A stretch of DNA of 9,444 nt, taken from positions 1 to 9,444 of IMG/VR virus record IMGVR_UViG_2648501797_000003. The stretch is one strand, 5' to 3'. The position numbers and the translations under genes were made by a program. Below, in pieces: positions 4,921-9,176 of this stretch; positions within the stretch are counted from its first letter, which is position 1, and each line of letters begins with the position of its first letter. The notes beneath the pieces are model-generated. The model was given only the letters and a program-made list of their open reading frames with translations, had not been told where the DNA came from and made no database searches. The DNA is from a virus. Its lineage: Duplodnaviria; Heunggongvirae; Uroviricota; Caudoviricetes.

Positions 4921-5340
4921 ATGGCTAAGCGTATGCAAGACAAAGAGAGCATTGCCGGGATGTCCTGGCTGGTTCTGCTGATCATTGCTGGTTGGGGCGG
5001 CCTTGTCCGATTCCTGATGGATGTAAAGCAGGGCAAAGCAAAATGGAGCTGGATAAATGCTTTTGCGCAGATTGTGGTTTCGGCTTTTACCGGGGTTATT
5101 GGTGGGCTCATCAGCATTGAAGGTGGCCTGAGTATTTACATGATACTGGCCACTGCCGGTGACCAGGTTAACAGCGAGCTATGGTGGGCGATTCAGAACG
5201 GTTATATGACGGTTAAAGCCGCAGGGGTTCGTGTCCGTGAAATAGAGACCGTCAGTGATGGTTATCAGTTTTTTGGCTTCGATATCGAAAATGACTATAT
5301 CGCTGGCTTCGACCGCGGGTCATGGGGAGAGAGATTTTAA
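4921..5340 (+). CDS. Holin-like small membrane protein (139 aa) with dual-start motif
   Basis: SD GGAGG (4908-4912) 8 nt upstream of ATG 4921. N-terminus M-A-K-R-M (Met1 and Met5 separated by Lys-Arg); hydrophobic helices around residues 11-33 and 43-79; charged C-terminal region. First gene after the late promoter/tRNA region, where lambdoid holins sit. Confidence 0.6.
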   Translation: MAKRMQDKESIAGMSWLVLLIIAGWGGLVRFLMDVKQGKAKWSWINAFAQIVVSAFTGVIGGLISIEGGLSIYMILATAGDQVNSELWWAIQNGYMTVKAAGVRVREIETVSDGYQFFGFDIENDYIAGFDRGSWGERF

Positions 5341-6221
5341 TGGCGACTAACGATTTTAAACCCTTCGCTACTGGTAGCGGGGCAAACGTATTATCACAAG
5401 CTGATTATGACGCACTGTCGGCCAGAACAACTGGCTTTTTAAGTGGCAAAGCGTCTTCGGCCCAGGTCAACAAAGCTTTAAGGCAGGCATCAACTATTGC
5501 GGCGGTTGTGGCGCAGTTTATTTCTGATAACAGCGGCGATGACACCCTTGATAACGGTAATTTACCTACCTTACTGGCTAGTCTCGAAAGCGCCCTCCTC
5601 AAGTCCTCCCCTGGGCGGTTACAGAATATCGTTAGCTTTACCGCAAATGGGACCTACACCCCATCGCCAGGAACCAAACATGTAAAAGTTATTGTTACTG
5701 GCGGTGGTGGCGGTGGTGGTGGTTGTCAGGGAACTTCAGGATCTGAATCAGTTTCAGGTGGCGGCGGCGGTGCTGGTGGTACGGCCATTGGTTATTTTGC
5801 TGTAACTGAATCCAGCTATGCAGTCACTGTAGGTGCTGGTGGTTCTGCTGGCGTTGGTGCTGTCCAGGGTGGAACAGGCGGAACCTCAATCATTAACGGC
5901 ATTAGCGGATTGGGCGGAGATGGTGGTCAGAAATCAGGGATCACTACGCTGGCTGGTGGGAAAGGCGGTATTTCTATTGGTGGCTCGGTTAACCTTCCCG
6001 GAGGTTACGGCACTGATGGGCAAAATGGCTCCCTGATTATCCCCGGCAATGGCGGCTCGTCATATTGGGGCGGCGGTGGTCGTGGGGGCGCACGCGGGGG
6101 CGTGGCAGGGGATTGTTATGGTGCCGGTGGTGGTGGCGCATATGATGCTGCCATGTCTGGCAACTCCTACAATGGCGGACAGGGGAAAGCAGGGATTGTA
6201 TATATTGAGGAATATTCTTAA
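5340..6221 (+). CDS. Glycine-rich protein (293 aa from ATG 5340), tail-fibre/adhesin-like
   Basis: ATG 5340 overlaps the upstream stop (TAATG) with GGGGAGAGAG upstream; the ORF-track start at 5322 lies inside the upstream gene. N-terminal ~110 aa ordinary composition (MATNDFKPFATGSGANVLSQADYDAL...), then polyglycine tracts (G8, G5, GGxGG) separated by short variable segments. Family not identified. Confidence 0.7.
   Translation: MATNDFKPFATGSGANVLSQADYDALSARTTGFLSGKASSAQVNKALRQASTIAAVVAQFISDNSGDDTLDNGNLPTLLASLESALLKSSPGRLQNIVSFTANGTYTPSPGTKHVKVIVTGGGGGGGGCQGTSGSESVSGGGGGAGGTAIGYFAVTESSYAVTVGAGGSAGVGAVQGGTGGTSIINGISGLGGDGGQKSGITTLAGGKGGISIGGSVNLPGGYGTDGQNGSLIIPGNGGSSYWGGGGRGGARGGVAGDCYGAGGGGAYDAAMSGNSYNGGQGKAGIVYIEEYS
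5700..5723 (+). repeat. In-frame trinucleotide simple-sequence repeat (GGY)8 encoding Gly8
   Basis: GGC GGT GGT GGC GGT GGT GGT GGT read directly from the sequence, within the Gly-rich CDS. Confidence 0.8.
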
Positions 6222-6391
6222 TGGTAAGCAAGTATGCAGTCCTGAAAGAATGCGTGGTAGAAAACATTATTGTTGCTGATGATAATTACTCTCCTGATGA
6301 TTTCGAAGTCGTAAAATATAGCGACGAAACATTTTGCCAGCCAGGCATGTTGTACAATAAAGAGGATGGTTTATTTTATGATGATAAATAA
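6221..6391 (+). CDS. Hypothetical small protein (56 aa), translationally coupled to the Gly-rich gene
   Basis: ATG 6221 overlaps stop TAA 6219-6221 (TAATG); translation MVSKYAVLKECVVENIIVADDNYSPDDFEVVKYSDETFCQPGMLYNKEDGLFYDDK. Below the ORF-track cutoff. Could be a short chaperone or a fragment of a tail-fibre assembly protein; unproven. Confidence 0.35.
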   Translation: MVSKYAVLKECVVENIIVADDNYSPDDFEVVKYSDETFCQPGMLYNKEDGLFYDDK

Positions 6392-6438: not shown

Positions 6439-6463
6439 AACCGGCTTATGCCGGTTTTTTATT
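6439..6463 (+). terminator. Strong intrinsic terminator directly abutting the start of the 694-aa gene
   Basis: 7-bp stem AACCGGC / GCCGGTT, 4-nt loop TTAT, followed by TTTTTTATT; ATG of the next gene at 6473. Confidence 0.7.
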
Positions 6464-6472
6464 GGGGCGACC

Positions 6473-8557
6473 ATGAGTGAATACGATACCGGCAATCCTG
6501 TGCCGTCTGCATCAATACCTGATGCATGGGATAATATGCAGTCTATTGACAGGTTCGCTAATAGTAGTGATGAAACTATTACCACGCGTACAGGTAAGCA
6601 GTTAGACACTCTGCATGGCATCAATGTAAAGTCTGATAACCAACTTAATGAACAACAAGATACCTTTGAATTATCTCAATCCGAAAGGGAATCCTCTTTC
6701 GAAGAAAAATCAAATGAATTTGAATCGCGCTTCTCCTCTCAGTTATCGGCGCAGGAATCAACATTTTCAGAATCTCAATCTGATAAAGAAAACCGCTTTC
6801 AGCAGTTCCTGAATACTTCAGGATACGTGTTCCTTGGCGATTATCAGGACGGCCCATTCCAGTTTAGTGCCCGTAACCAGTACATCCGTTACGGCAATGA
6901 GTATTACCGCCTGAATGCTGCTACTGACGTCGGCTTTACGACCACCGGAACCGATGCGACCAGCTTTGCGAACGACGTTACTCACTTCGTTCTGATGGAT
7001 GGTGATACGCTTCGCCAAGACCTGGGTTCAGGCGAAGGAGCAATGAAGGTTTACCGGAACGCCTCACCTCTGGCCAGAATCATTCGCTCCTCGATTTTTG
7101 AATACCTTACTGAAGCTGATCAGCAGGCGTTGCTCACAATTCCTGGCGTTAATGTTATCGCTGACTACGCGTTAAAAAAAGCTATAGCTGATGGAGTGAT
7201 GGTACTGGATATTCCGTGGAATGTCGGTGCGTTAAATTTCGGGCTTGACCCCGCAATGCTTCCATTAGGTTTTCAATTTATAGGGTGGGGTTGCCGACGC
7301 CCATATACAATTGATGACGATAACAGTTTTCTGAATTGCGGAGTCGTCATCCGCGTAGCTGCTGGTGCAAGTTTTCCATTTTATTCAACAGGCAGGCATG
7401 TATTCCGGGATATTGTTTTTGATGGCCGAGATAAAACAACGTACCTTTTTTATTCGCCAAATACTGCAACCCAGTTCAACGGCACCCGACTTGAGGGGTG
7501 TGGATTTTATCGGTTTGCGATCGGGATTGGCTGGGCTTCAGGAGGAACAGCCAGGTACATCGGAACAATGAAAGCATATTTCTGCTCAATATCCGGAAAC
7601 GGGGATGGAGTCAGGAATTTAATAGACTCCATGATGTTTGGTTGCACAATCAATGCTAATGATCGAGGAGTGGCCCTTACCGGTGGGGCAAACAATAACT
7701 TTTTTGGAGGATGCCGGAACGAATGGAACACCGGCGATAACTGGTATGCGTACCAGTCGGTGGAGAACCAGATTTTCGGCGAACTGTGCGACAGGGCCGG
7801 AAGGGGAGGTGTGGTCGCCGGGGCGAAATCCTCATGGATTTTAAACGGCGTTAACGTCCGGCGCAGTGGTGCTAATCAACCCGTGGGTAATGACTATTCC
7901 GCAAACTTTATTATTATTGATGACGGTAAAATTGAACTCTCAGGGGTAAGAACTGGTGTCGGTGCGAATGACAGCGGTGACGGAGGGACAATCTCGCCAT
8001 CCTACAACGTATCAGCTCTTGGCTCTGGCGGGGGGACCTTGCAGGTTTCCGGAAGTGACATGACTGGTTTTGTTACTTCAGCAATTAACCAGAAGGCGAC
8101 CACGTTAAATAAGTCGATAACCGGCAACCTTGGTATGGACGACGATGTAAATATTGGTATGACCCAGGTTGTTAAAGGCAGGCGAATTATTGGTTCACAG
8201 TCATCAGGTACGTTAGCAGGCTCTGCGGGCGCAACGTTATCGCTGACCAAGACCAACATATTCCAGAATTATTTCGATACATATATTACCCGTTCAATCC
8301 TAATTGAATGTCGAATTGGTAGCCAGTCATTTGGTGACGATATTAAAATTCCCGTCAGATTCAGAAGGGAGAATCTTTATTATCTGGATATCCTGACCTC
8401 GGGAATTGTTGCCAGCTCTGCACGCATTGGGCTTTCAGGGACTGGCGTAACGGTATCATTGTCCATTAACAGCTCAACCGGTCTGGTTACTGTTCAGTTG
8501 ACAAATGTTGATGGTCTGGAAAGAACCGTTAATGTATCAATGTTGCCCTCAATGTAG
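6473..8557 (+). CDS. Tail-fibre / tailspike-like protein (694 aa); probable receptor-binding protein with beta-helix-like body
   Basis: Long ORF. N-terminal acidic Ser/Glu/Phe repeats with roughly 11-residue spacing of Phe (TFELSQSERESSFEEKSNEFESRFSSQLSAQESTFSESQSDKENRF), typical of fibre coiled-coils; central and C-terminal Gly/Asn/Ser/Thr-rich stretches resembling beta-helix tailspike proteins. No specific family confirmed. Confidence 0.7.
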   Translation: MSEYDTGNPVPSASIPDAWDNMQSIDRFANSSDETITTRTGKQLDTLHGINVKSDNQLNEQQDTFELSQSERESSFEEKSNEFESRFSSQLSAQESTFSESQSDKENRFQQFLNTSGYVFLGDYQDGPFQFSARNQYIRYGNEYYRLNAATDVGFTTTGTDATSFANDVTHFVLMDGDTLRQDLGSGEGAMKVYRNASPLARIIRSSIFEYLTEADQQALLTIPGVNVIADYALKKAIADGVMVLDIPWNVGALNFGLDPAMLPLGFQFIGWGCRRPYTIDDDNSFLNCGVVIRVAAGASFPFYSTGRHVFRDIVFDGRDKTTYLFYSPNTATQFNGTRLEGCGFYRFAIGIGWASGGTARYIGTMKAYFCSISGNGDGVRNLIDSMMFGCTINANDRGVALTGGANNNFFGGCRNEWNTGDNWYAYQSVENQIFGELCDRAGRGGVVAGAKSSWILNGVNVRRSGANQPVGNDYSANFIIIDDGKIELSGVRTGVGANDSGDGGTISPSYNVSALGSGGGTLQVSGSDMTGFVTSAINQKATTLNKSITGNLGMDDDVNIGMTQVVKGRRIIGSQSSGTLAGSAGATLSLTKTNIFQNYFDTYITRSILIECRIGSQSFGDDIKIPVRFRRENLYYLDILTSGIVASSARIGLSGTGVTVSLSINSSTGLVTVQLTNVDGLERTVNVSMLPSM

Positions 8558-8565
8558 GAGTGAAA

Positions 8566-8745
8566 ATGGAAGACGAAACAGAACTGACCGAACCGCCATT
8601 TGAAACCTGGTTCAGAGACGTGGTTGAACTGGTTAAAAATGGCGGACATTCAATGGATATTGTTGCCTATAAGGGGGAATGGGTTGATTATTTTTCGGAA
8701 GGATTAACACCAGAAGATGCGTTTATAAAAAGAATGGCTCTTTAA
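8566..8745 (+). CDS. Hypothetical small acidic protein (59 aa from ATG 8566)
   Basis: SD AGGAG (8556-8560) overlaps the stop of the 694-aa gene, 5 nt upstream of ATG 8566; very acidic (MEDETELTEPPFETWFRDVVELV...). Confidence 0.5.
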   Translation: MEDETELTEPPFETWFRDVVELVKNGGHSMDIVAYKGEWVDYFSEGLTPEDAFIKRMAL

Positions 8746-8858
8746 ATAACCGACCGAAAATAAATGTCAGGGAGTAACGTATTGATAATTTTCGACAAAA
8801 CGGCAGAGCATAGTGAAAACCGCCTGTGGATGATGGCCAACATGGGGAGGATTCTGTA

Positions 8859-9176
8859 ATGGGCTTTCCATCACCCGCGACGGATTACACGGAACAGCGA
8901 TTAACGGTTAACTCGATCTGCAATGTCGGTCCAAATACGCGCCTCTTCGAGCAATCTGGCGGTTACGTTGTGCTGGATGTCTCCCTGAAACCAAAGCAGG
9001 CCAGTCAGGTTCTGATCCAGCACGGCGGCGGGACGGAGCTTGCCACGCTGAGAGGAAGGTCGCTGATTACCGAAGATGGTGAAGCGATCGAGGGCGAGGC
9101 CCTGGACGATGTTACTGTCATCGGTGTAGTGACGTTTACTATCTGCGATGTGCGCCAGGACAATGCGGTTGTTTAG
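8859..9176 (+). CDS. UmuD'-like protein lacking the N-terminal pro-peptide (HumD-like; 105 aa)
   Basis: SD GGAGG (8846-8850) 8 nt upstream of ATG 8859. N-terminus MGFPSPATDYTEQRLTVNSIC matches the UmuD segment GFPSPAADYVEQRIDLNQLL that begins at the Cys24-Gly25 self-cleavage site (13 of 20 identical by my recall). C-terminal TVIGVVTFTI resembles UmuD DVFGVVIHVV. No GDSM serine motif seen and no umuC-like ORF downstream. Confidence 0.65.
   Translation: MGFPSPATDYTEQRLTVNSICNVGPNTRLFEQSGGYVVLDVSLKPKQASQVLIQHGGGTELATLRGRSLITEDGEAIEGEALDDVTVIGVVTFTICDVRQDNAVV

Follow-up and report, generated by a model that had tools for sequence, protein, structure and literature searches.

Small acidic proteins encoded directly 3′ of one β-helix tailspike lineage: candidate assembly helpers in fixed and invertible cassettes of Klebsiella and E. 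coli prophages

In phages and prophages of Klebsiella and E. coli, the gene of one lineage of β-helix tailspikes is followed directly by a gene for a small acidic protein, and the pair recurs on unrelated phage backbones. One copy of this pair was analyzed in a stretch of 9,444 nucleotides, hereafter the window, from a Caudoviricetes record. Here, we propose that the small protein assists, without being essential, in the assembly of this tailspike lineage as its cognate, translationally coupled helper, a reading whose chances we put at about even on the comparative sequence evidence. Somewhat short of that, the 52–66-aa proteins may be an unrecognised class of trans-acting partners for one β-helix depolymerase lineage and, together with the tailspike module, the unit of Gin-type capsule-specificity switches in Klebsiella and E. 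coli prophages.

The small gene and the signal that precedes it are located as follows.

8566–8745, + strand: gene for a 59-aa acidic protein, predicted to be helical, with ATG at 8566 and TAA at 8743–8745.
8556–8560, + strand: Shine–Dalgarno sequence AGGAG, read directly from the sequence, overlapping the TAG stop of the tailspike gene and lying 5 nt before the ATG.

The product of the ORF, MEDETELTEPPFETWFRDVVELVKNGGHSMDIVAYKGEWVDYFSEGLTPEDAFIKRMAL, contains 14 Asp and Glu residues against 5 Lys and Arg residues and has a pI of 4.20 and a net charge of about −9.4. The 694-aa tailspike ORF occupies 6473–8557 with its TAG at 8555–8557; the ATG of the small ORF begins at the ninth base past this stop, leaving a gap of 8 nt, and the two genes are in different reading frames. 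The first-pass annotation had described a small acidic 59-aa ORF at this place, with a Shine–Dalgarno sequence overlapping the stop of the large gene, and both descriptions agree with the sequence. The 8-nt junction is retained in close relatives, and the gaps in distant relatives are 2–20 nt. An alternative in-frame start, GTG at 8560, would give a 61-aa form; the 59-aa form is supported by the RefSeq annotation (WP_025270003.1, “hypothetical protein,” in identical E. coli prophages), and the aligned Met is the start of the distant homologues. A promoter search upstream of the small ORF gave none above background. The junction geometry is compatible with translational coupling, which we infer from it, and the small protein would be made from the same late transcript as the tailspike. 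At 6439–6456, 16 nt 5′ of the tailspike start, there is a hairpin that resembles a terminator (AACCGGC..GCCGGTT plus a T run), which suggests that the tailspike gene and the small ORF may be a transcription unit of their own.

The ORF 8566–8745 is a genuine gene, as supported by its homologues, dN/dS ratios, and predicted fold; its length alone is not significant, with 75 ORFs of at least 40 aa in the window. Homologues of the 59-aa protein are 22–100% identical to it. The best E value in a single-sequence search was 1.7e-32, and an exhaustive profile search of 1.84 billion representatives gave 24 clusters at E ≤ 1e-3, with distant members down to about 1e-13. Eighteen of these clusters, checked by sequence or context, were 38–75 aa in length, and four of the 24 were much longer (103–1932 aa). 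By tblastn and profile searches, the relatives are almost confined to phages and prophages of Klebsiella and E. coli; a locus search with a narrow alignment was positive for one species genome among 185,579. Pairwise dN/dS values of the small ORF are 0.09–0.35, indicating purifying selection. An AlphaFold2 model based on a 17-sequence alignment (mean pLDDT 82) is a small helical bundle with helices at residues 11–26, 30–33, 36–44, and 49–58, and a disordered acidic N terminus. In the core family, F12, W15, Y35, G37, W39, D41, F43, and G46 are invariant. These columns outline an aromatic core (F12, W15, Y35, W39, and F43), not an acidic surface pattern, and acidity is a family-wide property, with net charges of −3 to −15 in the members.

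The window protein matched no Pfam-A family at E up to 1, and neither NCBIfam nor PADLOC had a match for it or for its relatives. A PDB sequence search with the small protein returned chance matches only (dehaloperoxidase, E > 0.1). In a PDB fold search with the AlphaFold2 model, nothing was significant; the best hits were RuvA chains (E 4–8), in which the relevant part is presumably the UBA-like domain III, and this model-based match is a weak lead. The BFVD fold search returned uncharacterised small phage proteins only. The label DUF5419, attached by one source to one relative (P0007), was rejected, as none of the aligned sequences (A2) gave a hit to it up to E = 10; the name was absent from the papers searched. 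A DNA-mimic anti-restriction protein, one of the ideas of the first-pass annotation, found no support: the gene lies in a late tail operon, no Pfam or PADLOC family matched, the E values of PDB folds were above 4, and the invariant columns consist of F, W, Y, G, and D, without stretches of acidic residues.

The large neighbor, which the first-pass annotation had called tailspike-like, consists of two parts.

6473–7010, + strand: constant part at the N terminus (Sc), comprising residues 1 to about 179, the virion attachment part, which differs among backbones; homology to tailspikes of other phages begins at residues ~170–200.
7037–8557, + strand: variable receptor-binding/depolymerase module (Sv), a predicted β-helix plus C-terminal domain, with matches to phrog_6518 at residues 141–692 and to 7xy1 at residues 207–606.

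That description was sustained by the matches of the 694-aa protein to phrog_6518 (“tail fiber,” 8.8e-129) and to the PDB chain 7xy1 (7xy1/7y1c, 3.7e-46), by which it is assigned as a tailspike. The structure 7xy1 is the homotrimeric tailspike gp42 of Kp9 (PMC12295037). The central domain is ~40% identical to S2-2 of phage K64-1 and to a tail-fibre protein of FBKp24; S2-2 and KP24gp300 are K25-specific capsule depolymerases (PMC13385381). No IMC domain or other Pfam domain was detected in the 694-aa protein, and a paralogue in locus L014 gave a subthreshold match to Pfam Beta_helix (E 3.6e-4, 20.6 bits against a cutoff of 25.9). The Sc part of the window and its counterpart in the tailspike expressed at an invertible locus, L044, are 77% identical. 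The Sv module is 31–99% identical in every tailspike that precedes an ORF of the small family, and these tailspikes have the terminal motif TGV.V...DG..LTV.LT[SN][VI]DG[IL].R in common.

Comparison of the loci shows that the linkage of the pair is conserved and that it is specific to one tailspike family. About 17 distinct cassettes on unrelated phage backbones carry a family member 2–20 nt after a tailspike with a window-like C-terminal ~500 aa. At 22 of 24 loci, the family member lies 8–20 nt 3′ of a tailspike that is homologous from residue ~170–200 to the C terminus and has a different N terminus. In VLCpiS11a, VLCpiS10a, Trex_ER12, 05F01, and Asterion, the relative is about 8–15 nt 3′ of a tail fibre gene encoding 600–750 aa. 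The distant members P0029, P0030, P0034, P0037, P0038, and P0044 (profile E 6e-13 to 4e-4) follow by 2–11 nt proteins of 501–834 aa, which are 34–49% identical to the C-terminal ~500 aa of the window tailspike, terminal motif included. The backbones that carry the pair include P2-like phages, gpJ-bearing (lambda-like) phages, Jersey-like phages, myoviruses of 145–157 kb, and a podovirus-named phage. P0030 resides in a P2-like prophage directly 3′ of a gpH-like fibre gene, the position of gpG in P2. Where other tailspike types occupy the same loci, they are followed by an unrelated small ORF or none (TrexA, L036_648, L037_525, and the 89-aa ORFs of L015 and L044). The first-pass annotation had suggested a dedicated partner of the large protein and had named a lack of conservation of the gene pair as evidence against it. 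The conservation across many unrelated backbones supports such a partner on comparative-genomic grounds, and a chaperone-like role, one of the roles it had suggested, is the best fit by gene position.

The matching within the pairs is not strict. Tailspikes that are 94–99% identical in the two regions compared (98–99% in the central domain) are paired with partners that are only 63–81% identical; either the specificity is loose or recombination separates the two genes. Divergence of the small protein gave Spearman coefficients of 0.61 with that of the β-helix and 0.46 with that of the C-terminal domain, values from non-independent pairs that fail to show which tailspike region the partner tracks.

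Unrelated small ORFs also lie 3′ of other tailspike or fibre types, namely in L015 (1491–1760, − strand, 89 aa), L044 (2590–2859, − strand, 89 aa), and L004 (3866–4015, 49 aa, acidic). The window itself has a second small acidic ORF at 6221–6391 (56 aa, pI 4.05, phrog_18617 with E 5.6e-23), which overlaps (ATGA) the stop of a glycine-rich tail-fibre gene at 5322–6221 and forms with it a pair from an unrelated family. From these several unrelated ORFs, small partners of receptor-binding proteins appear to be recurrent and largely unannotated.

In some Klebsiella prophages, the pair is part of an invertible segment.

L014 1597–5746: invertible segment of the Mu G-segment type; also in L012, L013, L017, L043, L044, and L045, all in Klebsiella prophages.

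Five of these loci (L012, L013, L014, and L017 from IMG/VR, and L045 from a K. spallanzanii genome) have one layout, in which the window-like module is silent and promoterless, with stop codons six codons upstream. The silent module begins at a 26-bp site, TTCGCGTAAACCTGGGTTCAGGCGAA, and adjoins a gene for a 192-aa serine recombinase with Resolvase and HTH_7 domains, 64–68% identical to the enzymes annotated as DNA invertases in the Mu-like phage SfMu and in phage D6. A second, inverted copy of the site is located inside the expressed full-length tailspike gene, where it encodes LRSNLGSDE, and such inverted pairs flank the segment in all five loci. Facing the silent module and its small ORF, in convergent orientation, is a second family member, small′ (63 aa, 28–30% identical), which lies 9 nt after the expressed tailspike gene; the two convergent cassettes share a hairpin between them. 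In these switches, the small gene is doubled, one copy for each alternative tailspike C terminus, which adds to the conservation of the pair. The cassette of the alternative variable part and small′ is the expressed one in L014 and the silent one in L043 and L044, and a single constant part is joined at the site to three different variable parts (L012, L015, and L018). A serine invertase is present in L014, L044, and L045. At L015 and L044, the tailspike expressed from the alternative orientation belongs to another family, and its partner is an unrelated 89-aa protein. Tailspike family and partner differ together at these two loci, which links expression of the small proteins to the tailspike type with which they belong. 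In an IMG/VR search, the exact flipped junction of L014 had 0 matches and the reciprocal junction had 2. Inversion would swap ~500-aa C termini of β-helix depolymerase-type tailspikes in Klebsiella prophages, a Gin/Cin-type invertase flipping two cassettes of this kind. Neither invertible depolymerase cassettes nor a tailspike partner of this kind was described in the papers searched, an incomplete set of the literature.

The window holds a fixed copy of the cassette, as judged from the following features.

7011–7036, + strand: degenerate 26-bp crossover site of the Gin/Cin type, TTCGCCAAGACCTGGGTTCAGGCGAA, encoding LRQDLGSGE at the constant/variable boundary.
8746–8859, + strand: right junction of the cassette, where homology to the invertible loci stops just past the stop of the small ORF (compared with L014 3950–3990 and the L007 ORF 558–929).
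8764–8859, + strand: 31-aa remnant (..FDKTAEHSENRLWMMANMGRIL) of a larger ORF (123 aa in L007, where it likewise lies before a UmuD-like gene), TAATG-coupled to the UmuD-like gene.
8859–9176: short gene for a UmuD/HumD-like S24 peptidase of 105 aa, preceded by the remnant.

The site in the window differs from that of L014 at 3 positions, a level at which 0 chance matches are expected; it is without the AAACC..GGTT core and lies exactly at the start of the cross-phage homology. Neither an invertase, a second site, nor a second cassette was found in the window, and with one degenerate site and no invertase the window is unable to switch. The small ORF is followed by the ORF remnant, the UmuD-like gene, and yecD; the window represents the right-hand end of a prophage that adjoins yecD in E. 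coli, and the region occurs in 64 of 5,426 complete genomes. In NZ_CP103704, the tailspike gene follows a complete set of contractile-tail genes. The identity of the window to that prophage begins only at 5160, a breakpoint inside the ORF 4921–5340, which joins a LydA-type holin (residues 18–80) to the 3′-terminal part of a baseplate-wedge gene. This breakpoint places the window copy in a defective prophage, which has lost its head genes and most of its tail genes. The fusion at 5160, and the decayed copies of the small ORF in other phages described below, would be expected if the small ORF had arisen by chance or were a relic of a prophage in decay. However, the ORF has an unbroken frame, complete prophages carry identical copies, the dN/dS values indicate selection, and the fold is predicted with confidence, and we consider a non-functional ORF very improbable. 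In the host of the window prophage, the gene may be unexpressed or useless; it is still a bona fide gene.

Loss of the small gene elsewhere bears on how strongly the tailspike depends on it. In the plaque-forming lytic phages SBP, SP5M, SEA1f, Snook, and AV124, the small ORF is decayed or gone; the tailspikes of these phages are 66–79% identical in the central domain and 69–73% identical in the C-terminal 94 aa. In SBP (L008 3990–4100) and SP5M (L042 1486–1600), the start codon is missing and an internal stretch is deleted; the SBP copy is interrupted by an in-frame stop as well. About 10 codons of the small ORF are left in SEA1f (L039 1486–1520), and no remnant was found in Snook and AV124. 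The deletion in SBP and SP5M is identical (..ELVKK joined to ..LLSS*), pointing to a single deletion in an ancestor that was passed on with the module. Judged from these genomes, the partner is demonstrably dispensable for some closely related tailspikes, and a helper would be beneficial rather than essential. Against a need for a helper, the related K25 and KL111 depolymerases were reported to be active as recombinant proteins (PMC13385381). The C-terminal domains of these two depolymerases are not detectably similar to that of the window tailspike.

The same losses bear on the possibility that the small protein is a subunit or regulator retained on the mature tailspike, in the virion or until assembly, where it would modulate receptor binding or hold the depolymerase in an inactive state within the cell, comparable to an adhesin-type gp38 or to assembly proteins that stay on the fibre tip. 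This corresponds to the inhibitor or immunity-like partner proposed in the first-pass annotation. The linkage evidence serves this reading as well as that of a helper; coupling suggests near-stoichiometric synthesis, and the model predicts a compact domain instead of the extended coiled coil typical of some chaperones. A required subunit, however, would hardly be lost in several lytic phages with intact tailspikes, and for a depolymerase inhibitor there is, as far as we can infer, no obvious cytoplasmic substrate to shield. Virion proteomics that would bear on a retained subunit was not found in the papers searched. We hold this possibility to be quite unlikely, below the one considered next.

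Some relatives of the small protein are found away from this tailspike lineage.

L026 5001–5201, L046 193–363, L047 679–846, and L051 3501–3683: weak relatives with the common motif F..W[FY]..L..LA...W.[DE]Y..G.[TS]PE.A.

In environmental phages, these weak relatives (E 1e-6 to 5e-4) are embedded in clusters of small early or replication genes, away from tail genes, with Dam, ParB-methylase, and HNH genes among their neighbors. An orphan subgroup of the Kp4864-1 type (P0022, 137 contigs; L007 996–1196 and L025 756–956) has no upstream tailspike; in L007 and L025, it faces convergent tail-fibre genes of another type and has a UmuD-like gene beside it, and it is possibly a relic of a lost cassette. 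Together, the weak relatives and the orphan subgroup suggest that the fold is not tailspike-specific. A partial, weak match connects the window protein to phrog_519, of unknown function (E = 2.1e-4, residues 12–54 on positions 88–131 of 143), and 19 of 23 family members matched this group, with a best E of 1.4e-9. This match and the early/replication neighborhoods are the main support for a passenger gene in the cassette, whose host or phage target would be unrelated to the tailspike (host takeover, anti-defence, or DNA mimicry). The family-wide acidity, the dispensability of the gene in several phages, and the faster divergence of the partner than of the tailspike also fit a passenger. Such a generic role, however, leaves unexplained both the restriction to this tailspike family and the replacement of the gene by an unrelated partner upon inversion in L015 and L044. 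The late position at the end of the tail operon, with no promoter of its own above background, also stands against it, as anti-restriction genes are typically early, and so do the aromatic or hydrophobic character of the conserved positions, the lack of PADLOC and Pfam matches, and a best PDB fold E of about 4. We regard a passenger gene as unlikely.

In the preferred reading, that of a cognate assembly helper, the small protein most likely acts in trans on the C-terminal ~500 residues of the tailspike, in folding, trimerisation, or maturation. Physical interaction and a role in assembly are suggested by the conserved linkage. The tailspike module and its partner would travel as a single exchangeable cassette. 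Capsule depolymerase tailspikes are mined, swapped, and made recombinantly for Klebsiella phage therapy and serotyping. If the small protein is a cognate helper, its gene belongs in expression constructs and engineered cassettes for this lineage and is the true right-hand boundary of the exchangeable module. If the switch reading is true, a temperate phage could alternate capsule types; the invertible loci suggest that some temperate Klebsiella phages flip depolymerase specificity, which bears on genome-based prediction of host range. In the recent catalogues and studies of modularity that were consulted, the only chaperones discussed are intramolecular domains, and a study of temperate phages does not treat inversion (PMC13385381, PMC13123978, 10.64898/2026.05.12.724579). 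For the window itself, as a frozen copy in a defective E. coli prophage, the consequence is modest.

The small protein and its cassette can be compared with several known systems. Like the DNA mimics Ocr, ArdA, and Arn, the protein is small and acidic; it differs from them in having no family or fold match, a late-operon position, an aromatic core, and a moderate charge (−3 to −15). T4 gp57A is a small, acidic, helical chaperone for fibre trimerisation that acts generally and is encoded away from its clients. The small protein resembles it in size, acidity, predicted helical structure, and a putative role in assembling trimeric tail proteins, and is unlike it in being cassette-linked; no PHROG or Pfam link between the two was detected. 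The endosialidase-type IMC and Peptidase_S74 domains would meet the same need, trimerisation of the tailspike C terminus, whereas the candidate helper is a separate polypeptide.

The invertible loci resemble the Gin/Cin/Pin/Hin switches (Mu G, P1 C, and e14 P) in that a ~190-aa serine invertase adjoins the segment. As in Din-family switches, the 26-bp sites of the relatives have a 12-2-12 arrangement, with an AAACC..GGTT core in most copies (e.g., TTCGCTCAAACC-TG-GGTTCAGACGAA), and the site lies within the receptor-binding gene at the constant/variable boundary, with the frame kept. Unlike in those switches, the swapped modules are ~500-aa β-helix tailspike domains plus a new small partner, and the window itself has one degenerate site and lacks an invertase.

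The closest parallel in gene arrangement is with the Caudo_TAP proteins (Mu U/U′, P1 U/U′, P2 gpG, and lambda Tfa): a small gene lies directly 3′ of the gene of the receptor-binding protein and covaries with its C terminus. In P0030, a small ORF in the gpG position of a P2-like prophage matches the arrangement of P2 gpG. The layout of the Mu G segment is Sc-Sv-U / U′-S′v, and in L014 as well each alternative C terminus has its own copy of the small gene. The first-pass annotation had judged the 59-aa protein too small for a classical tail-fibre assembly protein, in line with the absence of a Caudo_TAP or other Pfam match; none of 17 relatives matched Caudo_TAP (PF02413) at E up to 10, and no sequence relationship was found. 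Caudo_TAP proteins are ~175–200 aa in length, and the members of the small family, at 52–66 aa, are one third of that size and predicted to be all-helical. Their partner, unlike that of Caudo_TAP proteins, is a β-helix depolymerase tailspike instead of a fibre, and they are dispensable in some relatives. The small protein would have a role equivalent to that of Mu U, P2 G, and lambda Tfa for tail fibres, performed by an unrelated, much smaller, possibly UBA-like helical fold.
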